64,000 nucleotides of DNA from Candidatus Levyibacteriota bacterium (lineage in GTDB: Bacteria; Patescibacteriota; Microgenomatia; Levybacterales; UBA12049), in contig OY970292.1 in assembly GCA_963716145.1 (NCBI GenBank), positions 661,171 through 725,170 on the forward strand, read 5' to 3'. A program made the position numbers and the translations under genes. Position 1 is the first letter of the stretch. Each line of letters begins with the position of its first letter. Shown in pieces: positions 1 through 38,884 of this stretch. A model generated the notes under the pieces. The model saw only the letters and a list, made by a program, of their open reading frames with translations, was not told the DNA's origin and did no database searches.

Positions 1-2
1 AG

Positions 3-1880
3 GCTACAAGTCAGGCTCGAATTGGCTCTGTGACCATCGGAGCATTGGATGCAACAAATAACAGTCTCCTTGTACACGCAGACGGCGCAGGAGTAGGGAT
101 TATAAGAAATATAAAAATAAACGGAAGCCTTACCCTCTCAGGAGATAACGTAGACAACGGAGGATTGATAGTCCTATATGGACGGGCGGACACAGGCGGA
201 TCTGGTTTTAGCATGGCCGGAGGACAAGTAAATTCAGACATTGCCACCAGAAACTCAACTATTACAGGCGTTCACGCATACGCTAGCGCGGTTACCAATG
301 TAAATGGCGGTAACATTATATTCAATGGGGGTGCCAAGACATCGGGTAGTGGTGGGACAGATGGGAATGTTATTTTGGCTAACACCCGTGGCAACGTGGG
401 CATCGGCACCACAGCGCCTGATGTCTATTCTCTTGGTCTCACAAAACAAGTAACTATCTCAACCAACGGCGCGAGCGTCTCCTCAGCATCTATTGCAATT
501 GCGGGAGGAACTACCGGATCGGCACGTATTGATCTGGGTAATGAAAGTATTCTCAGAAGCGCTATACAAGGCATAAATGGATCCCATTTAACGCTTAGCA
601 CTAATGCTGCCAATTCAGGCACTACTCTGACAGAAAGATTGCGGATCCAATCAGACGGCAACGTGGGTATTGGGACAACTGCGCCTAGTACAAAATTTGA
701 AGTCGCAGGATACACTACCATCAGTGGGTCTGCATCTCATCTTGGATTTAATAACCCCACAACTCAACAAATATTTGGTCCTTATGGTTCAACTGCTGCT
801 GGGGGATATAGCTTTAATAACGATGCGGATACTGGATTCTCCAGATTTGCCGCGGATACCGTAGGGATAGTGACAGGAGGGTCAGAAAGACTCCGCGTTG
901 ACTCCACCGGCAACGTGGGGATCGGCACCTCTGCCCCTGGAAAAACCTTGGAAGTCGCAGGTAACAATACCACCAGCGCTTACACACCTCTCCGGTTAAG
1001 GAATACAAATGGAACAATAGGTGTGACCTGGGACTTTAACTTGGGTACCGACAAAGGACTAAATCTAAGTTCTAGTTCTGGAAATTCTTCTTTCTCGATT
1101 TCTCCGTCATCTGCAGCACTGAATGCTTTTTATATAAATAACGCTGGAAACGTGGGGATTGGGACAACAGGGCCGAATAATAATTTACATATAATCGGAG
1201 CAAGCAATACAAATTCTGGGATATTTGTAGAAGATGTCGCGGGGAGTAGGATATTAATATCTGGCTCACGGAGCACCACGGGCGTACCTTATATAGGAAC
1301 TTTTTCTTCAAGTACTCCACTTACACTTGGAACAAACGGAAACGAAACAATGCGTTTAACCACCGCTGGAAACGTGGGGATCGGGACGACTGCGCCAACC
1401 TTTAATCTGGATATCCAGAATGCAACCGGTACGACTCTACTTCGTGCCAAGAACACGGGAAGCAGCAATGCCGGTATCATCCTAGCATCTGACAATAACG
1501 GAGGATATATTACCAATAATGCCAGTCTTCTGACCAGTGAGGCAATCTACTTCCAGAACTCCACAAACTTAATGCGGCTGTATGCTGCAGGAGCTGAAAA
1601 AGCAAGACTGAGCAGTACTGGACTACAACTCTTTGGTACTGGCTCCGTTCTGGTAGTTGATGGTACCGGTAATAGCTCATTTGCTGGCAACGTGGGGATT
1701 GGGACGACCGCGCCGGGATCAAAATTTGAAATAAGCGGTAGTAACTCAGACCCATCAGGCGCATTGAGTAATGTAGGGGTAGTTCGGATAGGTACAGCCG
1801 CTACCAATGGTCTGGATATTGGCGCGAGTAGTTCGAGTCCATTTGGGGTCTGGCTTCCAGTCCAAAACAACCAGCATTAA
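3..1880 (+). CDS. Giant secreted repeat protein, N-terminal part (5' partial at window edge); six copies of a ~45-aa repeat carrying GNVGIGTT[AS]P
   Basis: Open frame runs from window start (no stop in frame before Met at 30). Repeated motif GNVGIGTTAP / GNVGIGTSAP / GNVGIGTTGP at regular spacing; Gly/Thr/Asn/Ser-rich composition typical of beta-helical fibre or adhesin repeats. Confidence 0.7.
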   Translation, partial: ATSQARIGSVTIGALDATNNSLLVHADGAGVGIIRNIKINGSLTLSGDNVDNGGLIVLYGRADTGGSGFSMAGGQVNSDIATRNSTITGVHAYASAVTNVNGGNIIFNGGAKTSGSGGTDGNVILANTRGNVGIGTTAPDVYSLGLTKQVTISTNGASVSSASIAIAGGTTGSARIDLGNESILRSAIQGINGSHLTLSTNAANSGTTLTERLRIQSDGNVGIGTTAPSTKFEVAGYTTISGSASHLGFNNPTTQQIFGPYGSTAAGGYSFNNDADTGFSRFAADTVGIVTGGSERLRVDSTGNVGIGTSAPGKTLEVAGNNTTSAYTPLRLRNTNGTIGVTWDFNLGTDKGLNLSSSSGNSSFSISPSSAALNAFYINNAGNVGIGTTGPNNNLHIIGASNTNSGIFVEDVAGSRILISGSRSTTGVPYIGTFSSSTPLTLGTNGNETMRLTTAGNVGIGTTAPTFNLDIQNATGTTLLRAKNTGSSNAGIILASDNNGGYITNNASLLTSEAIYFQNSTNLMRLYAAGAEKARLSSTGLQLFGTGSVLVVDGTGNSSFAGNVGIGTTAPGSKFEISGSNSDPSGALSNVGVVRIGTAATNGLDIGASSSSPFGVWLPVQNNQH

Positions 1881-3876
1881 TGCGAGCGCAGTATATCCTC
1901 TACTCCTAAACCCAGTCGGCGGCAACGTGGGCATCGGGACTACGAATCCTGGTACAACACTTGATATTGTCGGAACATTGAGAGTCTCAAGTTCTATAGT
2001 ACAAGGTGGAGCGGCAAATAATGGTATTGGAGAAGCCCAAATATCAGGCGTTCAACTCGCGCTATCTACAGCAGGTGCTGCGAGAAATGCACTCGCTCTC
2101 CGTGGATCCGCTTCTCAAACTGCGGATCTTCAGCAATGGCAGGACAGTGCGGGTGATATCGCGGCAAGCATGGGGCCAATCGCTGCCGGCAATCAGCGCC
2201 AACAATTTTTACTCTATAACACCCTTGAAACAACGCCTACCAATTATGAACGATTAGGTCTCTATGCTGACTCAACGAACAATATATTCAGAATTGATGC
2301 ACAAAATGGAGGAACGGGAACCCTTCGTAATTTAACCCTTCAAACAACCGGCGGCAATGTGGGGATTGGGACCACTGCGCCAACCTATAAATTATCTACC
2401 CTCAACTCTATTTCAACTGCCGGATCTGCTGTCTCTGCCATTACCAACACAAATACTACAGACAGTGCCAACACTGTAACTTTGAGGCTGAATACAGGTG
2501 CTACCTCCACCACAACTAATGCTCGTTTCATGACCTTCTATGCAGGCTGTACAACCGAAAACTGTGCAGGGACAGCGGTTGGAAATCTTCAGCTTAACAA
2601 CAATGCGGTACAACTAAATTCAGGAACCGCTGATTTTGCCGAGCGCTTCCCAGTAAGTGAATCAACAGAACCAGGAGACATCATAGGTATTGGTACCGCT
2701 GGTAACAGAAAAGCCCAAGCAGGAGATAGTTTGCTGGGAGTTGTCTCAGATACTGCCATAGTTGTAGGAAATTCTCCGGAAGGCGTTGATAAGTCAACTA
2801 ATCCTGTTGTCGGCCTTGTCGGTCAGGTCAAGACCAAAGTCTCAACAGTAAATGGTGAAATCAAAGCCGGTGATTTAATTACAGCAAGCGGCACACCGGG
2901 AGTTGGTATGAAAGCAACCCGCCCGGGAGCTATTATCGGTAAAGCGCTTGAATCATTCTCAAATGATGGAATCGGAAAAATACTAATCTACGTCAACTCC
3001 TCCTACGCTGATCCGCAAGGAGCTCTCGCTAATCTTTTCCTTGATGAAGGCGGAAACTTAGTTCTTCCAGCCAACACCAAAAGCGCAAACGCTGATCTGG
3101 GCCTGCCTCTTATTGCTTCTCCCGCAAATAATAATCCTGCCTCCCCCATCCTAAGTAAAACCGAAGGGTTTAATCCGGAGGAGTTTAATCAAAGAATTGC
3201 AACCAGTTCAGCGCACTTAGATGTCAGCAGTCAGTTGTCAGAAATCAGCAGCCAAACAGATAACCTTAATTCTAAAGTGGCTTCCGTAGAAGCTGAGCTT
3301 AAACTTTTAACTTTAAACTTTGGACTTTTAGCTAATCCTGCCTCCAGCTCTGCTCAATTAGGCTTAGACCCTGGCAACGCTACTTTCTCAGGAGATCTAA
3401 GTGTAGGAGGACGTACAACGCTTTCAGACGTTGGAATCACAGGAAAGATGAATATTGGCCTACTTGCAATTGAGGGACTATCAGAGAACGGTTTCGCGAC
3501 CATTAACACCACTTCTGGTCCTTTGAAAATCCAATCAGATGGACTCAACGGCATAGATATTCTTGATGGAAAGATTGTGATCGAACCCTCAGGCAACATG
3601 AAAGTTAATGGCGAGATTACTGTTAAGAAGGTAAATGTTGATACTGCTGAGGTAGCTTCAGCCTCGCTTGGTACAGCTATTCTTCCAACCGGCGAAAACC
3701 AAGTTGTAATTAATTCAACAGCTATAACTGATAAATCCAAAGTGTTTGTCACCTCAGAAACAGATATAGACTTACCGCTTAACGTAGTAAGTAAAACTGA
3801 TAAAAAATCCTTTACTGTAAAAATCAAGAACTCCCAGCAGGAAGATGTTAAGTTCAATTGGTGGATCGTTAATTAA
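1807..3876 (+). CDS. Giant repeat protein, C-terminal part (probably continuation of 3-1880 across a frameshift); carries a conserved ~150-aa domain (..FYAGCTTENCAGTA..ADFAERF..GDIIGIG..) and ends NWWIVN
   Basis: Overlaps the previous ORF by 74 nt in another frame and has no signal peptide of its own. Shares the GNVGIGTTxP repeat and a central domain with ORFs 9325-12009 and 17001-19646. Its C-terminus (NWWIVN) matches 9325-12009 (NWWIIN). Confidence 0.65.
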   Translation: MVWILARVVRVHLGSGFQSKTTSINASAVYPLLLNPVGGNVGIGTTNPGTTLDIVGTLRVSSSIVQGGAANNGIGEAQISGVQLALSTAGAARNALALRGSASQTADLQQWQDSAGDIAASMGPIAAGNQRQQFLLYNTLETTPTNYERLGLYADSTNNIFRIDAQNGGTGTLRNLTLQTTGGNVGIGTTAPTYKLSTLNSISTAGSAVSAITNTNTTDSANTVTLRLNTGATSTTTNARFMTFYAGCTTENCAGTAVGNLQLNNNAVQLNSGTADFAERFPVSESTEPGDIIGIGTAGNRKAQAGDSLLGVVSDTAIVVGNSPEGVDKSTNPVVGLVGQVKTKVSTVNGEIKAGDLITASGTPGVGMKATRPGAIIGKALESFSNDGIGKILIYVNSSYADPQGALANLFLDEGGNLVLPANTKSANADLGLPLIASPANNNPASPILSKTEGFNPEEFNQRIATSSAHLDVSSQLSEISSQTDNLNSKVASVEAELKLLTLNFGLLANPASSSAQLGLDPGNATFSGDLSVGGRTTLSDVGITGKMNIGLLAIEGLSENGFATINTTSGPLKIQSDGLNGIDILDGKIVIEPSGNMKVNGEITVKKVNVDTAEVASASLGTAILPTGENQVVINSTAITDKSKVFVTSETDIDLPLNVVSKTDKKSFTVKIKNSQQEDVKFNWWIVN

Positions 3877-3989: not shown

Positions 3990-5756
3990 TCACTCCACTG
4001 CATCGGCTACCACCTGCCAATATCTTGCTTCCTGGAAAACAATCTTGCCGGTCTTACTATCGCTAAACTTAAGCGGTCCTATTTCGTAAAACTCCGGCCA
4101 AACCTGGGGGAAATGCAGATTATAGCTCAATTTATAAGTATCCCCTTTCTTCAAATCAACATTCCATTTGATAATTTGGTTATTATGCTTATAGTTTCTG
4201 AAAACTATTCCTCTGTCTGAAATCATTGAAGCTGTTATACCTTTGGGCAAATTTTCCATAATTTGTCCTTTAAAATCTCTATTTGCATTTATAGTAATTG
4301 CTACAGGATAGGTTGAGAGCGGATAAACCCTTGTCGGATACGATGATCTTTCTACGCCAAAAACTGAATTATCCGCGACTATCAACTTCTCATCAAACTG
4401 CTTTTCGCCATCATAGGTCACGGCTTTTACATGGAGTTTGTAAACCCCTGCTTTTTCAAAAGACAATGCGTCCGCTATGTAATCAGGCATATTGGTCACG
4501 CTTCTTATTGAACATTCCCCGCTTCGCCTTACTCTACCATTTTCCGATGACAATACACCGGTTCTGACGCCTGCCGGATTAAATATTTCAAGTGATATGT
4601 CTGCATTACAAATTGTGTTGCCTGCATGATCTATAATTCCAAAGCCTAAGCTTACATCCGATCCTACGTTATTAGGGCTCCTGGGACTATTCATGGCGAG
4701 TGCGCCCCATTTAAAATCCTGCTGTGTCCCGCTCTGCTGGGGTTCTGTTCTGTCCAAGCTAGAATTCGGTTTACCGGCAGCTGTTTTTTTACCGTCTTGT
4801 TTTTGCGGAGGCTGCTGATTAGTATTTATATTTGTTAAATTAGGTAAGGGTAGTTTTGAGGGATTATTAATTACAAACAAAATAGAAAATAGCCCAAAGA
4901 GTATAATCGTACAGAGCACCGCGAATTGCCGCGCGTTAGCAAACTGCCTCCTCCGACTGATAACAGGACCGACCGATAATGAGTAAGCTAAACGGGCTTC
5001 GTAACTATTAAGCTCCATTCGTTTTAACATGTAATACAGGCCTGATCTACTTATGGTTTGACCCTTGCTTCTTACTATTATAGTAATTTGGGCTAGAGAA
5101 AATTGAGGGTTTTGCGCAACAATTTCCAATACCGTATTTTTAAGTTCCGGCACAAAGCGCCAATGCTTATCTCCCTTGGGACGATTACTTTCCAGTGCAA
5201 CTTCCTTTCTTTTTGAATGCTGATATTGACTTATCCAACGGTAGAAAATAGTTCTCGATACACCGACTTCTCTTGTCAGCTTAGTTATGGATTCACCTTT
5301 TTCATGTCTGGATATAAGCTCGATTTTTTGTGCTCCGGAAAAAAATTCATAACTTTTTTTTACCTTTCTCTTTAAACTTTTAATACCTGCGCTGGCAGTT
5401 CTTTCTTTGTAATCCTTAAGTACATTCCATGCCCCTCCCACGCTGACATGCGCACGTTTTGCAACTTTTCTTATGGAAAAATCCGGATTATTTAGCCATA
5501 AATTTATTATCTCCCGCTCTTTTTTTCTATCAAGTTTTCTCCAATGCGATTTTCCTTTGGGATACTTTTCGGAAAGAGCATCAGCTGGATTATTTTTTCT
5601 AGTATGCTTATATTCTTTTAACCAATGATAGAAAATAGTCCGTGAAATGCCGTACTCTTTACATATTTTGCTGACACTTTCACCTCTTAATGAGCGGGAC
5701 AGGAGCTCCATTTTGATTTCCGGAGATAATCTTTTGTAGTTTTTTGAAGTGTTCAT
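3990..5756 (-). CDS. Membrane-anchored protein with four N-terminal transposase-type helix-turn-helix modules, one TM helix and a ~300-aa extracytoplasmic domain
   Basis: Four repeats of a pattern like ..LSxxxKxEL..R...GES..KI.KEYG.SRTIFY.W...Y.. (IS3/IS630-type HTH). Hydrophobic segment FAVLCTIILFGLFSILFVINN. C-terminal domain of unknown function. Confidence 0.6.
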   Translation of the reverse strand: MNTSKNYKRLSPEIKMELLSRSLRGESVSKICKEYGISRTIFYHWLKEYKHTRKNNPADALSEKYPKGKSHWRKLDRKKEREIINLWLNNPDFSIRKVAKRAHVSVGGAWNVLKDYKERTASAGIKSLKRKVKKSYEFFSGAQKIELISRHEKGESITKLTREVGVSRTIFYRWISQYQHSKRKEVALESNRPKGDKHWRFVPELKNTVLEIVAQNPQFSLAQITIIVRSKGQTISRSGLYYMLKRMELNSYEARLAYSLSVGPVISRRRQFANARQFAVLCTIILFGLFSILFVINNPSKLPLPNLTNINTNQQPPQKQDGKKTAAGKPNSSLDRTEPQQSGTQQDFKWGALAMNSPRSPNNVGSDVSLGFGIIDHAGNTICNADISLEIFNPAGVRTGVLSSENGRVRRSGECSIRSVTNMPDYIADALSFEKAGVYKLHVKAVTYDGEKQFDEKLIVADNSVFGVERSSYPTRVYPLSTYPVAITINANRDFKGQIMENLPKGITASMISDRGIVFRNYKHNNQIIKWNVDLKKGDTYKLSYNLHFPQVWPEFYEIGPLKFSDSKTGKIVFQEARYWQVVADAVE

Positions 5757-5876
5757 GATTGAAAAAATGTTAACAATAATGTGAACACACAGTCAATTAG
5801 AAATTACTACATCAAAGCATAGCCCCATAAGAATTATCTAGCTTCAATTAAATTATTTCATTGTTTACTACAAGAC

Positions 5877-5898
5877 TTTAAAAATATCGTGAAAAACA
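5877..5898. repeat. Left arm of a ~20-nt inverted repeat (taaaaatatcgtgaaaaacatt) bounding a 1.34 kb AT-rich non-coding tract
   Basis: Its reverse complement (atgtttttcacgatattttta) recurs at 7219-7243 with 1-2 mismatches. Confidence 0.5.
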
Positions 5899-7218
5899 TT
5901 AACTATAATTTGCTTATTTACTATATTCACGTCTGTGAAATCATACTTTCCATACTATTTGGTAAATTAATACTAATAATTCTATTAATTACAAGACAAA
6001 TTTTGAATATTAAAACTTTATAACTAAATTTAAGTAGAATCCTAAAAAAGATAATTATTTATACCCCTGGAGAAATATATTTAGTCATGACAATTGGTAT
6101 CCAAACTTTTGCTAAGTTAAATGATCCAAACTAAAGTAAACTGGATCAATTTTACTTAAACAGACGCTTGCATGGCTAATATTAAAAACTTATATAATTA
6201 ATTTTGAGAATATTTAAAAGTTTACAAAATATTCAAAAACAAATACTAGAATTTAAATCTTAAGATAAATAGTAGCTTTAATGAGCCTAAGATATTTAGT
6301 AACAGTCATGAAAATGGCTGTTCACGAATGATCGGATGTTTTTGAAGACGATAAGTTGCAGATTAGCCTATTATAACAATCATTTCATATCTTAGCACCC
6401 AAATTATATTTCTGCTAAAAAATTTACCTTATACTTGATCTTATCTCATTTTACGCACCCGGTCGTATAAAGCGTTTTAAGGCTCTTGAAATTTAACTAA
6501 GCATCAAACCTTCATTGATCATTTTGATCTAACATGCAGATTATTACAAACCGATGTTACTCTAAAAGTCAGTTTTTGTTCAAGGAAATCTATTTTAATA
6601 ATTTGAGAATATCTCCGACCAGTAAATTCAATAAATTGCCTAGCAAGATATAAATACAGTTTTAATTAAGAATAGCGTAAAGCTCTACCGTATTTTTAGC
6701 GTATCTAGCTAAATCAAATTTTGAAGCTAAGTCTTTTTATAAATCAGCTTTAAAGTCTCATAGTTTGATTAATTTTACTACTATGAGTTTACTAAAAAAA
6801 TATTAGCTAGTCAACCAGTTGCAAACTATAATCAACAACATTAATATAAGAAATTGATACTAAGACTGATTTGTAAGTCCAAAGTGAATTATAAAAAACC
6901 TAGCACTACAACTTATCAATTGACAACAATAAAATTAACATGCTCAAAATACATTTTCTTCAATTTTAGCTATTGTCCTATTAATAAAATTCTACCCAAG
7001 TCTCATATTATTGATATACAACATTATCGTAGAGAGATTTATCTTGTCAGAGATTTAGTTAGTCATTTTTGGCTATTTTGTTTACCAAATAACCAAAATT
7101 AGGGAGCAAAAATAAAATCTAAATTGTAATAATATCCTATATATCAGAAAATTATATGAAAATATCCATTTCACAGCCTTATTTAATTTTCGTTTAATTT
7201 TTCACAGATTTTTTGATG

Positions 7219-7243
7219 TTTTCACGATATTTTTTATATATGT
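7219..7243. repeat. Right arm of the inverted repeat (gatgttttcacgatattttttata)
   Basis: Reverse-complement match to 5877-5898. Confidence 0.5.
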
Positions 7244-7285
7244 CTTAATAGTTCATTTAATATCAATATTGCTTATTTTTACCTA

Positions 7286-7365
7286 TTGACAAGATGGTGA
7301 AAACTTTTCTATTCTAGATATACTATTATTAATATATAGTTAATAATCGGTATAATTCGTATAAT
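7286..7365 (+). promoter_or_regulatory. Putative sigma70-type promoter region for the 7383 gene (TTGACA at 7286-7291; two TATAAT boxes at 7351-7356 and 7360-7365; GAGG Shine-Dalgarno at 7371-7374)
   Basis: Consensus hexamers read directly; spacing to the -35 box is ambiguous in AT-rich context. Confidence 0.3.
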
Positions 7366-7382
7366 CTCGAGGCTGTGTAGAT

Positions 7383-9416
7383 ATGGATATCATAAATCAA
7401 TTTAAAAAAACATTATTAGAAAATGGAGACTCGGCCCGTCTCGCCGAAGATGGCGAATCGAGGCGGGCAAGCAAGGTTACTGTTAAGAACTATATTGCTG
7501 ATGTTAAGAGATTTGTATTCTGGTTTGAAAATAATTATAAACGGTCATTTCCTCCTCCTGCACTAACTCTGGAACTGGTTGAGACATATCTTACACCTCT
7601 TAGAGCAGCATCTCCCAGATCAGCAAAGCGCTATCAGTCCTCTTTAAGAAAGTTCTTCGGGTATCTAACTGCTGAAGGCAAGCTTTCATACAACCCTCTT
7701 GAGAACAGCAAAGTGAAGCAACTTAAAACCGACCCATTGTATCTAAAAGAGTTCGGTAACTATCTTTACTCCTCCAACGCAAGCCCTGTGACCATCAAAA
7801 ATTATATTCTTGACGTACGCCAATTTCTTAACTGGGCTAGCGAAGTGACAGAAGATAGTTATAAAAAGGTACAGCCAGAAGAGGGTTCGCCATCACTATT
7901 CGACAATTCACTTACCCCCGCAAAACAGCTTCAATTTAGCAATCAGGCCTATCCGTTTGCCAATATTGATACCTTTATACTTGATGAATATAAGAACCGC
8001 CTTGTCAATGAAACCCGGCTTTCCCCTCTGTCGGTCAACAGAAAGCTCTCCTCGCTTAGAAAATACATCTCGTGGGCAAGTGCTAAAGGAATTCTTAAAA
8101 ATGGGGCGAATGTAGGTTCCAGCATTTTAAACTCCGCAGATGAAAACCTGGCTAGTGCGCCTGATGCTGTTCAGGTCGGCTTGGATCCGAATGTCTTAAA
8201 AGAAATTCAAACCATTCCGGCAAAGCCGGAATCACCTCTTGAAGCTGAGTACTCAAGATTCGGTCCATTGAGACTGTTTCAGAAAAGTAAACGGGCCGTC
8301 AATTTTATGCTTGATAGCCTGATAATATTATCCATTTTAAAAACAATTGAGGCCACAAAGTATAATCTTTGGAAAGCAACCGGTAAAGAAATCTTTACTC
8401 CGCTTCCAAGCGTTATAAAGTCACTGGGTCATGCTGTTAATACAACTTCCGCTGGGATTTCCGGAATAGACCCGATTAAATCAACTTCCCTCACTGCGAT
8501 AGATAAATTTGTAACCGCTTCAAACGCAGCATGGGGCAAGGGTAAAATTCGCTCAATTCCCAAATCTATATATGCGCCTTTTAGGATCTCGACAGATGCT
8601 CTACCGTTTTGGAGGAAGATATTGTTTAATGTTAAATATAGACGACCTAAATGGTACAAAAAGTATCATTCATATTCATTTGTACACTATGTGCACTTTG
8701 CAATTGTTTTGATCTTTGCAACTTTTGCCGGATTTAGCATCTATCAAAGATTCGCAAGTCCTGCGCCTATTAAAAATGTTCTTGCCAGTAAAGTAGTATC
8801 ACCCGGCAGACTTCTTTCCTTTCAGGGACGTTTGAATGACTCACAGGACTCTCCTATAACCCGCGAAAGTATTATTAAGTTTGCAATATATAATAGCCAA
8901 ACAGCCTCAGGCTCCGCACTTCTTTGGCAGGAGATTCAAACTATTCAACCGGATGGCACAGGCGCCTTCTCAACTACCCTTGGTAAGGTAAATAAAATTG
9001 AGCAAGATATATTTAATGATAATCCCAATCTGTATCTGGGGATTAGCGTAGGATCAGATGCGGAACTTATCCCGCGTCAAGAGCTTGCAAATGTGGGTTT
9101 AACCAAAAATGCAGAAGAACTACAGGGCTTAAAACCTATTACGGTAAATAATGCGGGTGCAAGTAATGTTATCCTTGCACTTGATTCTTCGGGAAATCTG
9201 ACTATAGGGGGGTCTGCGACCCCAATATTTCAAGCAACCGGCGGTGAATTTAAGTTATCCGGCCAGCAGCTCACTCTTGCTACAAATCAAGGCTCAAATA
9301 CCAATATTGTGATTAATCCTGACGGTGCGGGAATTATTGATATTCAAAGACCACTGCAAAATACATCAAACAATAACAATCTACAATCAGCCTTGGGAAG
9401 CCGTGGAAGTGGATGA
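7383..9416 (+). CDS. Membrane protein with three N-terminal tyrosine-recombinase core-binding (SAM-like) domain repeats, a TM helix, and an extracellular region leading into GNVGIGTT-type repeats
   Basis: Repeat 1 (..KVTVKNYIADVKRFVFWFENN..LELVETYLTPL..SPRSAKRYQSSLRKFFGYLTAEGKLSYNPLE) has the classic integrase N-terminal domain pattern. Two further copies follow (PVTIKNYILDVRQFLNWA.. ; LSPLSVNRKLSSLRKYISWASAKGIL). No catalytic recombinase domain. TM = VHFAIVLIFATFAGFSIY. Confidence 0.6.
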   Translation: MDIINQFKKTLLENGDSARLAEDGESRRASKVTVKNYIADVKRFVFWFENNYKRSFPPPALTLELVETYLTPLRAASPRSAKRYQSSLRKFFGYLTAEGKLSYNPLENSKVKQLKTDPLYLKEFGNYLYSSNASPVTIKNYILDVRQFLNWASEVTEDSYKKVQPEEGSPSLFDNSLTPAKQLQFSNQAYPFANIDTFILDEYKNRLVNETRLSPLSVNRKLSSLRKYISWASAKGILKNGANVGSSILNSADENLASAPDAVQVGLDPNVLKEIQTIPAKPESPLEAEYSRFGPLRLFQKSKRAVNFMLDSLIILSILKTIEATKYNLWKATGKEIFTPLPSVIKSLGHAVNTTSAGISGIDPIKSTSLTAIDKFVTASNAAWGKGKIRSIPKSIYAPFRISTDALPFWRKILFNVKYRRPKWYKKYHSYSFVHYVHFAIVLIFATFAGFSIYQRFASPAPIKNVLASKVVSPGRLLSFQGRLNDSQDSPITRESIIKFAIYNSQTASGSALLWQEIQTIQPDGTGAFSTTLGKVNKIEQDIFNDNPNLYLGISVGSDAELIPRQELANVGLTKNAEELQGLKPITVNNAGASNVILALDSSGNLTIGGSATPIFQATGGEFKLSGQQLTLATNQGSNTNIVINPDGAGIIDIQRPLQNTSNNNNLQSALGSRGSG

Positions 9417-12009
9417 TAACCTTGCTATCCTTGCTAGCACAAGTGATCAATCGGCTCTTGTAATCAACCAAAACTCCACAGGTGATTTAATTAGCGCAAC
9501 TACTGGGCAAACTGCTAAATTCACTGTGAGTAACAGTGGCTCAGGCATCTTTGCCGGAGACCTTAGTATTCTCGGGAATAACTTATCAACCGTGACGGGC
9601 ACATTCAACCTTGCCAATACAAATACCACCACTCTTAACATAGGAGGTGCCGCAACTAATATTTCTATCGGTGCCGCAACCGGTACTACAACTGTCAATA
9701 ATAATCTGAAGGTCAATGGTCTTCTGAACCTACCAAGCATAGCAGTTGGTTCAGTACCATTTATTAATACCAGCAATCAATTGGCTCAGGACACTGCAAA
9801 CTTCTTCTGGGACCAGGGCAATAAACGCCTTGGCCTTGGGACTTCAACTCCAAGTTATAGATTGTCAGTTACTGATAACGTTTCTCAGGCTGGAAGAGCA
9901 ACTGCAGCTATCACAAATATCAATGCAACAGACAGTATAAATTCTGTTGCTTTAAGATTAAATATTGGAGCTCCAGCAGCAAGCACCCAGTCACGGTTTG
10001 CAACTTTTTATGCTAATTGTAGTAGCGAGGATTGTGCGGGAACCGCTAAGGGGAATATAGCAGTTACTACGACCGGAGTGGCCTACAATACAGGTAGTGC
10101 TGACTTTGCGGAATACTTCAGCGCTGATGATAACACAATTAATCAAGGCGATATTGTTGGCCTTGATTCGAACGGAAAAGTCGTTAAAGCAACATCAAAT
10201 ACTCCTCTTGTTGGCGTTCTATCAACAACGGCCGGTTTTGTTGGGAATGATACAAGTGATCGTGACTCCAATGCAAATAAAGTGCTTGTTGGCCTTATGG
10301 GGCAATTGCCGGTTAAAGTTTCAAATGAAAATGGGATAATAAAAGCCGGCGACCCGCTAACAGTATCATCGATCCCGGGGGTTGCCAGCAAAGCAGTGGG
10401 TGCAGGGCAAATTGTAGGCCGAGCTCTTGAAACCTTTGATCCTCTAGTTAATACATCCAATAAAATCAAAATAGCTCTTAATGTATCTTGGTACGATCCA
10501 AGAGCCATACTAATGAATGATGGAAGCCTGGCTACCGCATTTGAGACTAATAAGTCAAAGCCCTCGGAACTTAGCTTTGGGGATTACGAAAAGTACATGA
10601 TATCAATCCGGGATTTTGTTAACACTCTAAACACCGGAGTACTTGAGGTTGCTAATATATCCACCAATTCCCTATCTATTGCAACTGAGGATATAACAAT
10701 TGGAGGACAAACGCTTCGGAACTACATAGCATCCATTGTTAATGAGATACTGGACAAAAGACTTGCTGAAGAAAAACCAAAGAATATTGTTGTTTTAAGT
10801 CCATTGGCTCAAGCTCCAAGTTCTGCAACTGTAAGTGCAGATATGCAAACCGCGAATCCTCCAGCAGCTACTGCTGCTGCTTCACTAACTCCTACCCCCA
10901 CTAACCCAATTCCTAGTCCAACTGCCACTCAATCTGCTACTTACGTAACCAATATATATAACAATGTATCATCAACTAGCGCTGGGTTGGCATCAACCAG
11001 CGCTTCTCTAAGCCCGACACCGGAATTATCTATCTCCCCTACGCCTTCACCTGAAATTACAGCAAGTCCCTCAGCACAACCAACACCTATTGCTACAGAG
11101 TCTGCACAAATCCAGAACACTCAGACAACTCAGCAAAACAGTAAATCTGAAATTCAGGACATCAGAGAGTCTGAAATTACTGATACACTGAGTATTCCGA
11201 GTTTTCCGAACCTTCAAACTAATCATGCTAATATCGCAACTTTCTCCGCCGAACTCTCTTATATTCCCAATCTCAAATCAGACTATGCGACTTTTAATCA
11301 TGGATTAATCGCTCTTGGCCCAACCAGCCTTGCTGAAACATCAATTAGTACTCAGCTCTCGATTGGACAAAGTATGGTAATTACCGAAAATTCAATAAAC
11401 ACTCTTGGAACAGATCTTAATCTTCAACCTCTAAAGCAAGGAAATCTTTTGATAATGGGAGGACTTGTGGCAGTAGACACACAGGGCAATTTGAGTGTCA
11501 CCGGAAACGCGGCTTTTGCTAAAGATGTTACGGTAAAAGGCAAACTTGCAGCAGGCATTATCGTACCTGTTCCCGATCAGGATCTGATCTTTCAGCTTGG
11601 AGAAAATACACCAGGCAATAAGATAGAAGTCAAAAATGCTTCAGGCAGCGGAGTATTGAGTATAAATAAGTTTGGCGACATTATCTCTTCAGGAAGCGCG
11701 CAATTTTCAAATTTCAAAATCGTGAGAGGAGCCCAAGCAGACACTTCATTCACAGAGACAGTTGCGAAAGGCTCTGCCGGAACGGCCGTGATCACAGCCA
11801 ATGAAACCGAACGAACAATAGTCACACCTTTTGTTACAAAAGATTCATTAATATATATAACTCCTGTTTCATCAACTAGCGGGACAACTCCATATATCGC
11901 AAGACAAATAGAAGAAAGCTCCGAAACCGCAAGTAAAGGCTCTTTCACTATCCAAATCTCAAGTCCAGTCTCAAGTGACATTAAATTGAATTGGTGGATT
12001 ATAAACTAA
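9325..12009 (+). CDS. Giant repeat surface protein, C-terminal part (probable frameshift continuation of 7383-9416); carries the same conserved central domain and ends NWWIIN
   Basis: Overlaps the upstream ORF by 92 nt in another frame and lacks its own signal peptide. Contains ..FYANCSSEDCAGTA..ADFAEYF..GDIVGLD..VSWYDPR.. as in 1807-3876 and 17001-19646. Pro/Thr/Ser-rich linker (PTPTNPIPSPTATQS..). Confidence 0.65.
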   Translation: MRELLIFKDHCKIHQTITIYNQPWEAVEVDDNLAILASTSDQSALVINQNSTGDLISATTGQTAKFTVSNSGSGIFAGDLSILGNNLSTVTGTFNLANTNTTTLNIGGAATNISIGAATGTTTVNNNLKVNGLLNLPSIAVGSVPFINTSNQLAQDTANFFWDQGNKRLGLGTSTPSYRLSVTDNVSQAGRATAAITNINATDSINSVALRLNIGAPAASTQSRFATFYANCSSEDCAGTAKGNIAVTTTGVAYNTGSADFAEYFSADDNTINQGDIVGLDSNGKVVKATSNTPLVGVLSTTAGFVGNDTSDRDSNANKVLVGLMGQLPVKVSNENGIIKAGDPLTVSSIPGVASKAVGAGQIVGRALETFDPLVNTSNKIKIALNVSWYDPRAILMNDGSLATAFETNKSKPSELSFGDYEKYMISIRDFVNTLNTGVLEVANISTNSLSIATEDITIGGQTLRNYIASIVNEILDKRLAEEKPKNIVVLSPLAQAPSSATVSADMQTANPPAATAAASLTPTPTNPIPSPTATQSATYVTNIYNNVSSTSAGLASTSASLSPTPELSISPTPSPEITASPSAQPTPIATESAQIQNTQTTQQNSKSEIQDIRESEITDTLSIPSFPNLQTNHANIATFSAELSYIPNLKSDYATFNHGLIALGPTSLAETSISTQLSIGQSMVITENSINTLGTDLNLQPLKQGNLLIMGGLVAVDTQGNLSVTGNAAFAKDVTVKGKLAAGIIVPVPDQDLIFQLGENTPGNKIEVKNASGSGVLSINKFGDIISSGSAQFSNFKIVRGAQADTSFTETVAKGSAGTAVITANETERTIVTPFVTKDSLIYITPVSSTSGTTPYIARQIEESSETASKGSFTIQISSPVSSDIKLNWWIIN

Positions 12010-12124: not shown

Positions 12125-12544
12125 CTAGTAGTCCTTCAAAGAAATGAATTTAATTCCCGAAGTCAATAAATTCCTATCTATATTTTCTGTCACCATGAAG
12201 GCATCTTTTTGCTCACTCAGCGCCAAAAAAACGCTCTCATAATAGCTAATTCCGTAGGCCGAGGCTATAGCATGCGCCTCTTTGGAAAGCATTTCCGATT
12301 GCGGGATAAATTGAATAGGCAAATCAGAAAGCACTGCAAGGGGAATTTTTGACTCTAACTGAGAAAGTTTCTTATTCATTATTAATACATTACCAATCTC
12401 GTATTTTGCAAGTTCAGGAGCAAATAAGCCTACCTTACCTTTAATAGCATCTTTTAAGATATTGTCTGCCTGCTCAATATGATCCTCTTTATTTTTGTTG
12501 AGCCATTTTACAATTACTGATGAATCAAGTACAAGTTTTTTCAT
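12125..12544 (-). CDS. vapC: PIN-domain toxin (VapC family)
   Basis: N-terminal MKKLVLDSSVIVKWL.., acidic residues at PIN catalytic positions; 139 aa; 12-nt gap to the upstream antitoxin-like gene. Confidence 0.75.
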   Translation of the reverse strand: MKKLVLDSSVIVKWLNKNKEDHIEQADNILKDAIKGKVGLFAPELAKYEIGNVLIMNKKLSQLESKIPLAVLSDLPIQFIPQSEMLSKEAHAIASAYGISYYESVFLALSEQKDAFMVTENIDRNLLTSGIKFISLKDY

Positions 12545-12556
12545 ATAAAATAATTT

Positions 12557-12823
12557 TTAATATTTAATATTCCTATCCCTGGTTATAAATTCAGAAGCAC
12601 TGGTTGTTGGCTTTCCTTTAATATCTCTTGATTTTTTAATAAGTTCAAACAATTTCTCCCATTCTGCTTCTTTAGCTGCTTGATGAGGAGTAATTATTAT
12701 CTCGTCAGGTTTTTCGATTGTTATTGAAACAACAGATGAAGTCCCTGTCCATCTGGTCAACTTTCGAATAGATTCAGGCAGTGTCAATTGTCCTCTTTCA
12801 CGAATTATTCCTACTGTCGTCAT
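12557..12823 (-). CDS. vapB: AbrB/MazE/SpoVT-type antitoxin (VapB-like)
   Basis: ..GIIRERGQLTLPESIRK.. swapped-hairpin motif; 88 aa; sits immediately upstream of the PIN gene. Confidence 0.7.
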   Translation of the reverse strand: MTTVGIIRERGQLTLPESIRKLTRWTGTSSVVSITIEKPDEIIITPHQAAKEAEWEKLFELIKKSRDIKGKPTTSASEFITRDRNIKY

Positions 12824-12929
12824 ACTAATCAGATTATCAGAAAATCAGAATTATGTCAATATCTTGATATAGTATTTTTGCTGTCTTGACAATATATATT
12901 TTGGTTTGATAACGTGGAAATATACCAAC

Positions 12930-12994
12930 TAATAACTCATAACAAATAACGATAACAACATGTGTTATAAGTAATCAGTCATAAGTTATTAGTC
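12930..12994. promoter_or_regulatory. ATAAC heptad array followed by inverted GTTAT heptads (ataactc ataacaa ataacg ataacaa ... gttataa gtaatca gtcataa gttatta), directly upstream of the 13004 start codon
   Basis: Same composite element recurs at 35081-35179 and 39071-39132. Confidence 0.5.
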
Positions 12995-13003
12995 GGAAAA
13001 ATC

Positions 13004-15163
13004 ATGAATACAGCCAAAAGAGAAATAACAGCATACCTCGAAAACATAAGTCTATTTGTAATAGGCGCTTTCCTCGTCCTCCTGCCTATTCTTTTTCTAA
13101 CAAATACTACTGATGCTTTTGTATTCCCCAAACAAATTGCTTTAAGTATTGCTATTGGCTTATTCAGTCTTTTCTTCGCTGTCAAAACAGTAAGCGAAGG
13201 AAAATTAAAATTCAGAACTTCTTCTTTTGATGCGCCTGTTGCACTATTTATAGTTGTCGCATTTCTCTCAGCTATTCTCAGCCGTAACCGTTATGACTCC
13301 TTGATTGCTTTTGTCCCCCTTTTCTTTACAGGTATTTTGTACTTTGCAATTGTTAACCTCGTAAAACGTGAAAAACAGTTACTTTTTGTTCTCTCCAGCC
13401 TTATCTTGGGGGCTGTTTTGTCTTCAGTTGTCAGTATCTTTTCATTTTTAAAAGTATATCCCCTGCCCTTTCCAAACACCCAAGTTCAACAATTTACAAC
13501 TTTGGGTTCACCGCTTGATCAGGCCCTCTATCTTGCCCTAGTCCTTCCTATAACAGGATATTTTATCTATGCATTTTCTTCCTCAATCAGATCAGGAAAA
13601 GAGTCTGCTCACACTCCATTTGCCAAACACGAAAAAAGGAATTCAACTCCTGTAATCGGCTTTAGCATAGCTTTTCTGATAATTGCCCTGTCATTGGGAA
13701 TAACTATATATATGCTTACCACTTCACAAAAACCTCTTATCCTTCCTTTTGAAACTGGAATTCAGACTGGCTTCGCAGCTATTTCACAAGATACGGGATC
13801 AGTCATAAAAAGCATCTTCCTGGGATCTGGTTTTGGCACATACTTGTCAGACTTTACCAGATTCAAACCAGCTGCTTACAATGCCAATCCAAATCTGTGG
13901 TCCTTTATATTCTTCCGTTCATCAAGCTTTGTGCTTGAGCTTTTAGCAACCACCGGATTACTTGGACTTGGTTCGTTTCTTTTCCTGGTCTTCAAGATCG
14001 TAAAGGCTCGCAACGCATTCCTACCACTTATTGTTGCTGTGATTGCCGCATTCCTCCTTCCCTTCTCTTTTACCCTTGTGGCTCTTTTCTTTGTTCTTCT
14101 GGCAATTTTTGCAGTCGTACTGATTCACGGTAATCCTGAAAAGTTTGCGGAAAGCGAATTCTACCTTGTGACCTTAAAACATGGACTCTTCGCCTTCAGA
14201 CCAGAGGGAGAAAACATCAGATTAAACGACTCAGAAAAGAAATTCAGCTTGATACTGCCTATTCTTTTCTTTATTGTAACTCTAATAATTGTTGGTTATC
14301 CACTATTCCTGACAGGAAGCTTTCTGATTTCTGATCTTACTTTTCAGAGATCGTTGGTGGCTGCATCCAAAAATAACGGACTTGAAACATACAATCTTCA
14401 GAATGCTGCGATTCAGCAATTCCCATACCGTGATATATACTATAGAAGCTTCTCGCAAACCAACATTGCGCTTGCGAACTCTTTGGCCAGCAATCAGCGC
14501 GAAAGCAAGGCAAGTCCTTCCGCACAACTTCAGCAAAATATCACAACTCTTATCCAACAATCAATTAATGGAGGCAGAACAGCAGTCGCTATATCTCCTA
14601 TGACCGCATTTAACTGGAACAATTTATCATCAATCTATCGGAGTCTGATCGGCTTTGGGGAAAATGCAGACCGCTTTACACTTGTTACGGCACAGCAGGC
14701 AATCGCACTGGACCCAAACAACCCTCAGCAATATCTTGATCTTGGAGGCGTATACTTCCAATTAGGGCAATATGATGAAGCCATAAGACAATTTCAATTC
14801 GCAATCAACTTAAAGCAGGACTATGCAAATGCCTACTATAACTTGGGTCATGCTCTTGAGGCTAAGAAAGACTATAAGAACGCGGTCGCAGCCTACCAAG
14901 TAGTCCAAAACATTGTAGCTAAGGACAAAACCAATGCTGACAAAATCAAAGCTGAGATAGAGGCACTCCAGAAAAAAATAGCCAGTGGTGATACCGAAAC
15001 AGCAACAGATACTGCCACAGCAACTCCAAGCGCCGATCTAAATGTAAAAGATAAAGCTAGCACTACTCTTCCTGAGACTGATCCACAAGTTAAAATCCCA
15101 GGTCCTAGCGACAGCCCAACTCCAGCTCCTTCTAAAGCGGTCTCACCTACCCCATCCCTGTAA
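13004..15163 (+). CDS. Polytopic membrane protein, O-antigen ligase/polymerase-like with C-terminal TPR repeats
   Basis: ~12 predicted TM helices in the N-terminal 450 aa; TPR-like ..YLDLGGVYFQLGQYDEAIRQFQFAINLKQDYANAYYNLGHALEAKKDYKNAVAAY..; Pro/Thr/Ser-rich tail. Confidence 0.55.
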   Translation: MNTAKREITAYLENISLFVIGAFLVLLPILFLTNTTDAFVFPKQIALSIAIGLFSLFFAVKTVSEGKLKFRTSSFDAPVALFIVVAFLSAILSRNRYDSLIAFVPLFFTGILYFAIVNLVKREKQLLFVLSSLILGAVLSSVVSIFSFLKVYPLPFPNTQVQQFTTLGSPLDQALYLALVLPITGYFIYAFSSSIRSGKESAHTPFAKHEKRNSTPVIGFSIAFLIIALSLGITIYMLTTSQKPLILPFETGIQTGFAAISQDTGSVIKSIFLGSGFGTYLSDFTRFKPAAYNANPNLWSFIFFRSSSFVLELLATTGLLGLGSFLFLVFKIVKARNAFLPLIVAVIAAFLLPFSFTLVALFFVLLAIFAVVLIHGNPEKFAESEFYLVTLKHGLFAFRPEGENIRLNDSEKKFSLILPILFFIVTLIIVGYPLFLTGSFLISDLTFQRSLVAASKNNGLETYNLQNAAIQQFPYRDIYYRSFSQTNIALANSLASNQRESKASPSAQLQQNITTLIQQSINGGRTAVAISPMTAFNWNNLSSIYRSLIGFGENADRFTLVTAQQAIALDPNNPQQYLDLGGVYFQLGQYDEAIRQFQFAINLKQDYANAYYNLGHALEAKKDYKNAVAAYQVVQNIVAKDKTNADKIKAEIEALQKKIASGDTETATDTATATPSADLNVKDKASTTLPETDPQVKIPGPSDSPTPAPSKAVSPTPSL

Positions 15164-15440
15164 TAAAGCTAAAATAAGCTAACTTTGCTTAACCGAAGGT
15201 TGAAATAATAATAGAGATTATAGTCTGCTTATGGATTGCTACAGTGATATTGCTCCTGCAATAAGTTACATTGATCCAGCTAAAAAACTTAGAGCTGATA
15301 TAACTGATGATGGGAACGTGAATCAGTTTGACTACAATCTTTTCCTCAGGGAGTTGACCAATATAAGCGGAGAGTAACTGAAAAAGAATAGAGACATGAT
15401 TTGCATCATATCTCTATATCAAAATATATACTAGTATATA

Positions 15441-15743
15441 CTATTGTCTATTTTGTCTAAAACAGTCTCGACAAAGAACTGGTTTATCGCCTCTTGGTTC
15501 AAAAGGTACAGTGTCGTCTTTTCCACAGTTTGAACACTTTATTGGGAAAGATTGTCTTGGTCCTCGGTCACCACCGCCGCCTCCGCCTCCACCGTTGAAG
15601 TTTGCACGAGCTTTTGCCCGGCAATCTTTACAGCGAAGTGGTGCGTTGAAGCCTTTTTCCTGGTAAAATTCCTGTTCTTCGGCTGTCCAAGTAAACTCGG
15701 CGCCGCAGTCTTTACATTGAATTGTTTGGTTTGTAAATGCCAC
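15441..15743 (-). CDS. Tandem zinc-ribbon protein (two CxxC..CxxC units with a poly-Gly linker)
   Basis: CKDCGAEFTWTAEEQEFYQEKGFNAPLRCKDCR and CSNCGKDDTVPF..CRDCF; GGGGGGGG linker. Confidence 0.6.
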   Translation of the reverse strand: MAFTNQTIQCKDCGAEFTWTAEEQEFYQEKGFNAPLRCKDCRAKARANFNGGGGGGGGDRGPRQSFPIKCSNCGKDDTVPFEPRGDKPVLCRDCFRQNRQ

Positions 15744-16018
15744 TTAAGATTCACCCCCTTTTTGTTTCATATTTTCTGTAATCCTAAGTGACTAAAGTGA
15801 AGAAATTTCTTGCAAGCCTTAGATTCTCTGGAATACTGATTGCTAACAGATTATGAGCATCAATAAATATTGATAATCAAAATCTATCTGCATTATACCA
15901 CAGTATATTTGCCAATGTCCATTTGTCATTTGCCATTGATTTCCGATTTAACAATTTGGTAATTGAAAATAAAATATAAATGGAAAATGGAACCTGGAGA
16001 ATGGAAAATAAAGCGCAT

Positions 16019-16684
16019 CTACTGGCTTGGAAGTGCCGTAGGAGCAGTTGTGGCCTCAGGAGCAGCAGTTGGTGCCTCCCCAGTTGGTCCGCTTGGTGTT
16101 GGACTTGGGCCAATATTGATCGGCGCTACATTGATAATCTTATTTTTGGATGGGCTGTAAAGAATTGCCTTTTTTGACTGGGTATAAATAAGTACCTTAT
16201 CGCCATTTACAGCTTTTGCGAAAAATGCCTGATTCTTGAGTTTGGCATTATCAGTGACAGTTGCAATTGTCGGGGTTTCGCTGGCAGGAAGATCAATTAG
16301 CTTCCCGACTTTATCAACAAGCTGTTTTATTTCAGTTTTGGATACTTCCTGAGGATTTTTGAAGTTTTTTAACTGCTCTTGTGACTGCCTATAAAGGAAA
16401 AAACTGTATGCAGATGCACCAATAGCAATAATCAATAAAATAATCACTATCCGCCCTCCTACACCCTTTAATTTGCCGGTCTTTTTATTGTTACCAACTG
16501 AGACTTCTTTGTCAACTATTTCTGTCATAATTTCAGATTTAGGAATACTTTCTTCAACCGGTTTAGAAAATGCGCTTTCTTTAACTCCTGCTTCGGACGC
16601 GTCTGACGTAGCTGGAGAATCTGTGAAAGTCTTCTCGGGGATTGATTTTTTTCCAAATTTTGCTGAGGGTGCTCGCTTTGCCAT
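16019..16684 (-). CDS. Single-pass membrane protein, hypothetical (low-complexity cytoplasmic N-terminus, TM, Pro/Thr-rich C-terminus)
   Basis: TM IVIILLIIAIGASAYSFFLY; no recognisable catalytic motifs. Confidence 0.45.
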   Translation of the reverse strand: MAKRAPSAKFGKKSIPEKTFTDSPATSDASEAGVKESAFSKPVEESIPKSEIMTEIVDKEVSVGNNKKTGKLKGVGGRIVIILLIIAIGASAYSFFLYRQSQEQLKNFKNPQEVSKTEIKQLVDKVGKLIDLPASETPTIATVTDNAKLKNQAFFAKAVNGDKVLIYTQSKKAILYSPSKNKIINVAPINIGPSPTPSGPTGEAPTAAPEATTAPTALPSQ

Positions 16685-17000
16685 AAAATCTCTCCTATAT
16701 TCAGGTTAGCTAATTAATAATCGAGTGTCAAGCTCTAGCAAGCTCAGCTATAACTTGTTTTTTATGCAAAGAACAAATACCGTGAGTATATTGCTGTCGT
16801 TTTTTTAAAGGTATACGAGCTTTTGATCCGCACCATGCGCAAACCCAGATAAGTTTTGTTAATTTATTTTGCATATTTGCTTTCATGTTTTTAATTTGGC
16901 TTTTGGCAAAATTAAATAACTACTTTGAATAGCAGCAAAACGTTATGTATATTTACTTTTATGCTCCGCCAAAGTTTCATACTTCTTACCTCCTTTCTCT

Positions 17001-23635: not shown

Positions 23636-23652
23636 ATTCGCAGTTGGGGCAA

Positions 23653-38484: not shown

Positions 38485-38884
38485 ATTTATATATTATCAT
38501 TGTTCTTTGTCTGCACAAAGAACCAAAAACTAAGCGGTATCCCGCCCGTTCGCTGCGTAATGCATGAAAAATCTTATGAGCGCATCAGGGGGATTCCTCG
38601 GCAGAGCAAAGCTATGATCGAGGAGGGGGTGAAATCACCCGATAAGTGAAGAAGATTTCGAAAGCATGGAGCGAGACTAGGGCGCAGTTTTGCTGCCAAA
38701 AGTGTGAAAAAAGAGTTTGTCTCCGCAAAAGAACAGAGAAAAAATTATTAAAAAAATTTTGCATTTTGACTTTTAAGTTTTGAATTGAAGCTCGAATTTT
38801 GCGTTGTATACAAATATAGTACCAGAGTCGGGAATTTTCTCCAAGTGATTAAATTATTTATACGCTATAGGCTGAAATTGCCAC

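Follow-up and report, generated by a model that had tools for sequence, protein, structure and literature searches.

We analysed a 64,000-nucleotide stretch of contig OY970292.1 (assembly GCA_963716145.1) from a Candidatus Levyibacteriota bacterium, here called the window, and all positions are counted within it. At positions 3990 to 12009, two divergent genes flank a long AT-rich spacer. The minus-strand gene encodes protein 1, which joins an array of transposase-type helix-turn-helix (HTH) modules to a membrane helix and an outer domain pair. The plus-strand gene encodes protein 2, a long fibre with integrase-type core-binding domains at its N-terminus, again ahead of a membrane helix. Together the HTH gene and the fibre gene are a conserved two-gene envelope cassette of a Microgenomates-type bacterium of the Candidate Phyla Radiation (CPR). 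Neither protein carries the catalytic domain of the enzymes that its N-terminal head resembles. Coordinates are collected in Table 1.

Two divergent genes for membrane proteins with mobile-element-type heads

Protein 1 matched the Pfam families HTH_28 (E 9e-16), HTH_23, HTH_Tnp_1, HTH_29, HTH_7 and HTH_32, in two stretches each. The NCBIfam matches are to transposase N-termini only (the first ~110 model positions), from the insertion sequence (IS) families IS481 (E 1.7e-25), IS3 (E 4.5e-14) and IS630 (E 2.5e-13). These scores (50-90 bits) lie far under the whole-protein cut-offs (100-224) because the DDE catalytic domain is absent; neither rve nor DDE_3 was found by the Pfam search. The IS481 alignment pairs model positions 2-111 with residues 144-253, in the second of two bipartite HTH units, where HTH_28 (143-183) and HTH_32 (172-241) also match. 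An AlphaFold2 model built with 14 relatives as input (mean predicted local distance difference test, pLDDT, of 77) contains four three-helix modules (residues 12-51, 77-123, 141-180 and 205-246), a long helix (263-297) with the hydrophobic segment inside it, a disordered linker (298-335) and two beta-sandwich domains (351-460 and 466-584). Invariant residues are S38, R39, T40, Y43 and W45 in the first HTH unit and S167, R168, T169 and Y172 in the second. The membrane helix is kept in all checked members of the family. In the ectodomain, two cysteines (C383 and C415) are invariant, and Foldseek matched its domains to RbmA, to macroglobulin (MG) domains of bacterial alpha-2-macroglobulin and to integrin calf domains (E 6e-9 to 1e-7), with other Ig-like folds of this sort also among the matches. 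The same type of ectodomain recurs in secreted or giant proteins (P0018; loci L008 and L012). An earlier note on this DNA, made from the letters and translations, had described four IS-transposase-like HTH modules, one membrane helix and an outer domain of ~300 amino acids (aa), and the family matches and the model bear this out.

The first open reading frame (ORF) of the fibre gene, 7383-9416, matched Phage_int_SAM_1, _4 and _5 in Pfam (E 4e-15 to 4e-10). In NCBIfam it matched only the N-termini of XerC, XerD and XerA, with XerC and XerD at 45-57 bits against cut-offs of about 330. The tyrosine-recombinase catalytic domain (Phage_integrase) was found by neither search. Profile searches thus confirmed both the HTH and the Phage_int_SAM families that the earlier note had named. 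Its count of three core-binding domains without a catalytic domain stands as to the missing catalytic domain and is corrected to two domains (residues 1-110 and 117-245), which align with each other as an internal repeat (E 4e-8). The helical part resembles XerA and lambda Int in Foldseek with a probability of 0.98-1.0 but a weak E value (0.06-0.1). By sequence, comparison of both DNA-binding-type heads with solved structures gave nothing below E 0.04. Residues 250-432 of protein 2 matched no Pfam family; within them, the conserved juxtamembrane region has a long amphipathic helix (294-333) and the invariant residues S403, R421, P422, Y425 and Y428. The sole strong hydrophobic segment (433-451) follows, with six K/R just ahead of it. 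On its far side, residues 478-568 weakly matched the N-terminal domain of Bdellovibrio mosaic adhesive trimer fibres (NF053851, E 0.0019).

In both proteins, the residues before the membrane segment are strongly basic (60 K+R against 25 D+E in protein 1, net +35; 63 against 39 in protein 2, net +24), with K/R clustered right before the segment, and the residues after it are near neutral. Hydropathy, the positive-inside rule, net charge and the ectodomain cysteines of protein 1 point to a predicted topology with the N-terminus inside and the C-terminus outside for both proteins.

In related genomes, three homologues (1368-1521 aa) cover 7383-9401 in one reading frame and carry on at 9400-12006 in the next. 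Because these full-length homologues span both frames, ORFs 7383-9416 and 9400-12009 are read as one gene; by homology, 7383-12009 is a fibre gene of ~1540 aa, split here by a one-base indel. The first ORF therefore leads into the giant-repeat protein, as had been claimed, and the accompanying view of it as a stand-alone protein fails, the ORF being the N-terminal part of the fibre. The extra base was judged against the frame kept in all relatives, and the break at ~9400 is either an assembly error or a genuine mutation. In the outer part of the fibre, the Peptidase_G2 match covers model positions 31-102 of 228 and is internal, with about 580 residues after it, and a PHROG pre-neck appendage family also matches (E 1.4e-5). 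Fibre-type genes elsewhere in the window likewise look divided into overlapping ORFs (30-1880/1807-3876 on the plus strand; 23653-24798/19490-23635/17001-19646 on the minus strand). The split genes at 30-3876 and 17001-24798 carry GNVGIGTT-type repeats and partial Peptidase_G2 matches. This recurrence suggests assembly indel errors, or else decay or phase variation.

Table 1. Features of the cassette, in window coordinates
Feature	Position	Strand	Remarks
HTH gene (protein 1)	3990..5756	-	588 aa; four transposase-type HTH modules, one membrane helix, linker, two immunoglobulin (Ig)-like ectodomains
Protein 1 ectodomain: two tandem beta-sandwich (Ig/MG/fibronectin type III-like) domains	4005..4706	-	AlphaFold2 pLDDT 80-93
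Protein 1 membrane helix, hydrophobic core about residues 277-297 (segment about 272-297)	4866..4928	-	Kyte-Doolittle peak; RRR ahead; AlphaFold2 helix 263-297
HTH unit 2, bipartite (residues 141-246; modules 3+4)	5019..5336	-	best match to IS481 N-terminus
HTH unit 1, bipartite (residues 12-123; modules 1+2)	5388..5723	-	HTH_23/HTH_29 at 12-53; helices 12-51 and 77-123
AT-rich spacer	5757..7382		1626 bp, 25.6% GC, between the divergent genes
Promoter-like site of HTH gene	5767..5796	-	TTGACT-18-TAACAT with TG; ends about 10 nt before ATG
16-nt exact repeat, left copy	5880..5895	-	TTTTCACGATATTTTT in minus-strand writing; 124-139 nt upstream of HTH gene
Tandem TATAGT-N12-TATAGT	5902..5925	-	about 150-170 nt upstream of HTH gene; equivalent place in L002, L003, L006
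Central palindrome TTAGCA-N15-TGCTAA	6392..6418		GTGCTAA invariant in four loci; copy in L007
Block AAAACGC(A/T)(A/T)TA(C/T)ACG	6464..6478	-	about 45 nt from central palindrome; in four loci
Cluster of TTTCAC/GTGAAA-type sites	7155..7234	+	150-230 nt upstream of fibre gene
16-nt exact repeat, right copy	7219..7234	+	within TTTCAC/GTGAAA cluster
Two promoter-like sites of fibre gene	7286..7356	+	TTGACA-18-TATTCT and TTAATA-16-TATAAT; block conserved in relatives
Fibre gene, first frame (residues 1 to about 672)	7383..9401	+	ORF 7383-9416, 677 aa
Core-binding (SAM-like) domain 1, residues 1-110	7383..7712	+	Phage_int_SAM_1 at 27-99; four helices; XerC model positions 10-97
Core-binding domain 2, residues 117-245	7731..8117	+	Phage_int_SAM_1 and _5; interrupted by ~35-aa insertion at about 158-189
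Cytoplasmic juxtamembrane region, conserved, residues 289-432	8247..8678	+	no Pfam match
Protein 2 membrane helix, residues 433-458	8679..8756	+	KYRRPKWYKKYHSYS directly ahead
First extracellular beta domain, residues 478-568	8814..9086	+	pLDDT 83-90
Frameshift point	9396..9401	+	one extra base in TTGGGAAGCC; reads ..SALG then AVEVDDN..
Fibre gene, second frame	9400..12009	+	about 870 aa; fibre repeats, segment like an intramolecular chaperone (IMC), Pro/Thr/Ser-rich linker, C-terminal domain
Segment resembling autoproteolytic IMC domain of phage appendages, partial	10042..10260	+	Peptidase_G2, E 1e-9

The spacer and the distribution of the heads

The 1.6 kb tract between the two ORFs had been called gene-free and AT-rich, and this is correct at the length and composition given in Table 1. 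Its longest ORF has 82 aa, and no frame of its conserved central block is kept in the relatives; a hidden gene was therefore rejected. A replication origin was rejected as well, there being no DnaA boxes and no GC-skew change in the spacer. It contains no tRNA, and an Rfam search gave only a chance-level match to a small nucleolar RNA (E 0.98). RNAalifold predicted -4 to -5 kcal/mol for the central block on either strand, essentially only the palindrome, with little covariation among the four sequences.

Conserved features were read from an alignment of four spacers. The promoter-like block of the HTH gene is conserved in relatives, including L001 and L003. Because no Shine-Dalgarno sequence is visible ahead of this gene and its -10 box lies about 10 nt from the ATG, the HTH-gene mRNA may be leaderless. 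At the other end, the promoter-like sites of the fibre gene are followed by GAGG 10 nt before its ATG. The central palindrome would be either an operator or a sigma-70-type promoter (-35 box and extended -10) facing the HTH gene, and transcription from such a promoter could yield a leader of ~630 nt or an RNA as yet unannotated. Across the loci, GTGAAA/TTTCAC sites are concentrated 150-350 nt ahead of the fibre gene: seven stretches of 400 nt (2.8 kb) contain 22 hexamers where the AT-rich background predicts 2.7, a comparison inflated by the close kinship of several loci. In the window, this cluster includes the imperfect palindrome ATGAAAAT-N5-ATTTCACAG at about 7157-7176. Clear palindromes such as CGTGAAAT-N5-ATTTCACG stand at -215 to -250 of the fibre gene in L001, L002, L003 and L006. 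We rejected the idea that GTGAAA serves the whole HTH family for autoregulation, since 15 HTH-family paralogue genes lack the motif in their upstream regions.

Inverted repeats of 20 nt had been reported to bound the tract. This does not hold: the perfect repeat is 16 nt long, has the same sequence when read in the direction of either gene, is missing where the spacers of relatives align with it and does not recur in the window. Among spacers simulated with a first-order Markov model, 14% contain a perfect inverted repeat of 16 nt or more. Because of this frequency and its absence in relatives, the repeat is by itself not beyond chance and bounds no mobile element, and we rejected it as a pair of mobile-element ends. 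Since its TTTCAC core is common to the conserved sites, it may be an additional operator copy.

Both protein families occur in Microgenomates-type CPR genomes (Levybacteria and Woesebacteria), where public annotation names the relatives 'transposase' or 'site-specific integrase, partial'. Protein 1 has 11 full-length orthologues (39-53% identity). The earlier note had proposed a search of other CPR genomes for the same fusion, and the divergent HTH/fibre pair was found in six of them (L001, L002, L003, L006, L007 and L017) at 39-66% protein identity. All six have an equivalent gene-free spacer (1.5-2.3 kb, 23-29% GC). With the same divergent order kept at this level of identity, the two are conserved genes of the chromosome and not debris of mobile elements.

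The heads extend beyond the pair. In an exhaustive search with the cytoplasmic 470 residues of protein 2 as query (E <=1e-30, clusters at 50% identity), core-binding modules were found to head at least 169 protein clusters, mostly of 1300-6000 aa, and in nearly all the matches listed the module begins no later than residue ~40. A profile of the HTH head gave at least 29 matches. Among the proteins with the fourfold HTH head are fusions to processive-synthase-like glycosyltransferase family 2 (GT2) domains (L007:11528-14878, L018:9977-13408 and L008:904-9504). The L008 fusion (2866 aa) unites the fourfold HTH head, GT2, an MG2 domain and a protein 1-type ectodomain in one protein. A third type of head, MerR/HTH_17, begins two neighbouring giant fibres in L001, of 2723 aa (12298-20469, minus strand) and 7506 aa (1-3352, minus strand). 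A membrane helix follows it in the 2723-aa protein and in a 258-aa protein of L002 (3115-3891, minus strand); the N-terminus of the 7506-aa fibre lies outside the locus. In these genomes, envelope proteins thus have transposase HTH, integrase core-binding domain or MerR/HTH_17 at the N-terminus, in each case followed by a membrane helix.

Known systems and the proposed function of the cassette

Protein 1 and protein 2 share parts with several known systems. As in ToxR, TcpP, CadC and VtrA, an N-terminal domain of DNA-binding type, here predicted to be cytoplasmic, is followed by a single membrane helix and a domain predicted to lie outside, and the regulator gene lies beside envelope- or virulence-type genes. 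ToxR-type proteins carry one OmpR-type winged helix (Trans_reg_C), whereas here there are four transposase HTH modules or two core-binding domains, and Trans_reg_C was not matched by Pfam in either protein at E up to 0.1. Protein 2 further differs from the sensor-type ToxR proteins in being a ~1540-aa fibre. The same order of parts (HTH, membrane helix, periplasmic domain) is found in RodZ, where the HTH contacts the protein MreB instead of DNA. That HTH, of the Xre type (HTH_25), is the only one in RodZ and is joined by a DUF4115 domain; Pfam found neither family here.

Each half of the protein 1 head is homologous to the first ~110 residues of IS481/IS3/IS630 transposases, with HTH_28 followed by HTH_32. 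Unlike those enzymes, protein 1 lacks the DDE domain, has the DNA-binding region duplicated and continues into a membrane helix and ectodomain. Its gene occurs once, keeps its synteny and is not framed by terminal repeats, the 16-nt repeat sitting in the spacer. The two four-helix core-binding domains of protein 2 resemble XerC, XerD, XerA and lambda Int by Pfam, NCBIfam and fold. Unlike in Xer and Int proteins, they stand in tandem without a catalytic domain and are followed by about 190 conserved residues, the membrane helix and a fibre of about 1000 aa. The partial Peptidase_G2, PHROG pre-neck appendage and weak Bdello_MAT_N matches of that fibre recall phage appendages with an intramolecular chaperone and Bdellovibrio fibres. 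The IMC-like segment is internal here and covers a third of the model; fibres with an autoproteolytic chaperone (Peptidase_S74/G2) have the complete domain, with a cleavage site, at the C-terminus. We know of no phage or Bdellovibrio fibre with a cytoplasmic DNA-binding head or an N-terminal membrane anchor.

Demey et al. (2023, PMC10269533) surveyed transmembrane transcription regulators and found them in most bacteria and archaea, with DNA-binding domains from over 100 families. That survey counted 231 with HTH_23, 45 with HTH_Tnp_1, 10 each with HTH_28 and HTH_32, 386 with MerR and 151 with HTH_17. Among its HTH_Tnp entries are several true transposases that carry an rve domain; Phage_int domains do not occur in its tables, nor Patescibacteria in its main text (PMC10269533). 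With this class, broadly defined, both proteins of the cassette share a recognised DNA-binding-type domain and at least one membrane helix in the same polypeptide. Because this class is known, with HTH_23, HTH_28, HTH_32 and HTH_Tnp_1 cases among its members (PMC10269533), the statement in the earlier note that the architecture was undescribed holds for the specific architecture and not for the principle. We found no published description of duplicated IS481-type heads on membrane proteins, of tandem core-binding domains heading giant fibres or of a cassette with a long operator-rich spacer, in a literature that left out most subscription journals, so that this absence is not proof. The principle of a membrane-tethered DNA-binding protein is already known, and the specific architectures are apparently not.

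The cassette suggests that cell-surface events may be wired directly to DNA. Our preferred reading, put forward tentatively and a shade short of probable, is that protein 1 would be a transmembrane regulator acting on the spacer and protein 2 a surface fibre whose head also binds DNA. By analogy, protein 1 is most likely a single-pass, N-terminus-inside one-component regulator with the logic of ToxR, TcpP and CadC. Its basic head, in which the bipartite DNA-binding region of an IS481/IS3-type transposase occurs twice, would bind the repeated or palindromic sites in the long spacer, its candidate operators, while tethered to the membrane, and the ectodomain pair would sense something at the cell surface. 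Binding could then control the divergent fibre gene, the HTH gene itself, or both. Protein 2 is probably a phage-appendage-like fibre for attachment to a host or substrate, anchored by its one membrane helix. Its head, the two core-binding domains with the juxtamembrane region, may likewise bind DNA, giving feedback or a physical link between fibre and nucleoid. The ToxR/TcpP-like logic that had been proposed for both proteins thus fits protein 1 and does not extend to protein 2 as a one-component protein in its own right; for either, DNA binding is a prediction. The strongest argument for it is that three unrelated DNA-binding folds occupy one position: their shared N-terminal, cytoplasmic place argues that DNA binding itself may be the selected property.

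Several observations weigh against this proposal. The two strongest are that the fourfold HTH head is also fused to LysM proteins and to multi-pass GT2 synthases (1116-2866 aa), structural proteins or enzymes and not sensors, because of which a pure sensor-regulator picture fits less well, and that GTGAAA is missing upstream of the 15 paralogues. Conservation of the motifs is partly inherited, the four closest loci being related. Distant core-binding fibre genes (L023, L024 and L026) have upstream gaps of 0.5-0.8 kb and no HTH partner, so the HTH/fibre pairing is specific to one subclade. A second, moderately hydrophobic amphipathic helix (305-323) leaves some doubt about the topology of protein 2, and its gene is frameshifted in this genome.

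The presence of one fourfold HTH head on envelope proteins as unlike as those with the Ig-like ectodomain, LysM proteins and GT2 synthases (1100-2900 aa) also fits a different account, drawn by analogy with RodZ and in our view rather unlikely. Here the heads would have turned into cytoplasmic protein-interaction or assembly modules that anchor, sort or organise envelope proteins through a common partner, with DNA uninvolved. The long juxtamembrane region of protein 2, strongly conserved and without a DNA-binding signature, agrees with such a role. So does the recognition-helix motif G(I/V)SRTIFY.W, which is near-invariant across paralogues and fits a common ligand better than diversified operators, but S-R-T..Y.W is the general signature of the Pfam HTH_28/HTH_23 profiles, and its invariance is therefore weak evidence. 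Against this account, three unrelated DNA-binding folds would each have had to make the same switch in the same position. The heads also retain helices with the family signatures of DNA contact and are strongly positive in net charge. The conserved palindromes of the spacer also require some binding protein.

Alternatively, the heads could be low-specificity DNA binders by which the nucleoid is tethered to the envelope, or could aid coupled synthesis and insertion, with no signal-dependent regulation. Located at the extreme N-terminus of proteins of 1300-6000 aa, they would emerge and fold first in coupled transcription and translation, and several different DNA-binding folds are interchangeable in the head position. 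In another bacterium, genes have been reported to associate with the membrane while envelope machines are made (PMC9977878). We consider this improbable: protein 1 is short (588 aa) and yet retains four HTH modules, and palindromes conserved at fixed distances from the promoters indicate site-specific binding.

That the genes are functionless remnants, a decayed IS transposase and integrase mis-joined to neighbouring ORFs around a non-autonomous element that the inverted repeats would delimit, is scarcely credible, since the public names of the relatives, the 16-nt perfect inverted repeat near both spacer ends and the frameshift in the fibre gene, which would suit it, are set against the lack of either catalytic domain, a repeat that is unconserved, at chance level and without a second copy, and the plain contradiction from synteny and family size, with full-length orthologues (membrane helix and ectodomain intact, 39-66% identity) in the same arrangement in six other genomes and long proteins headed by core-binding modules in at least 169 clusters.

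Returning to DNA-binding heads as the preferred explanation, a wider version of it is conceivable, which we place on the unlikely side. The large surface structures of Microgenomates-type CPR bacteria (fibres of 1300-6000 aa, proteins that bind the wall, polysaccharide synthases) might routinely carry mobile-element-derived cytoplasmic DNA-binding heads, excisionase/MerR HTH heads included, so that the structural protein itself does the signalling or tethering. Contact, tension or assembly state of the fibre would then be read out on DNA, in place or after release of the head. If true, this would be a surface-to-genome coupling undescribed in bacteria, and one suited to cells whose small size puts the nucleoid against the membrane everywhere. 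CPR bacteria have tiny cells and are generally regarded as host-dependent, and their genomes encode few recognisable regulators and surface proteins that are largely unexplained.

If the heads do bind DNA, a sizeable protein set would gain a function, in which the core-binding head by itself accounts for at least 169 clusters, many of them now under the names 'integrase' or 'transposase', and several thousand database entries would need re-annotation. The cell surface would be coupled to gene expression or to the nucleoid in a lineage-specific way. The case is also a clean example of DNA-binding domains from mobile elements domesticated three times into one structural position. The cassette is directly testable: it provides two heads and a spacer of 1.6 kb with a few conserved palindromes.

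Elsewhere in the window

A GC-rich island at 38500-41650 (49-58% against about 40% elsewhere) has ORFs that overlap on both strands and lack any match in Pfam. At its right end, positions 41552-41616 (plus strand) gave a sub-threshold match to the type III hammerhead ribozyme (E 3.5e-5), at 35.8 bits where the gathering score is 48.5. No 16S ribosomal RNA (rRNA) was found in the window. The 23S rRNA lies within 56057-59860 (minus strand) and is adjoined by 5S rRNA and tRNA-Ala(TGC); its length of 3277 nt against a 2925-nt model indicates an insertion of about 350 nt. Just downstream of the fibre gene, at 12125-12823 (minus strand), a 139-aa PIN-domain protein preceded by an 88-aa ORF resembles a VapBC-type toxin-antitoxin pair.

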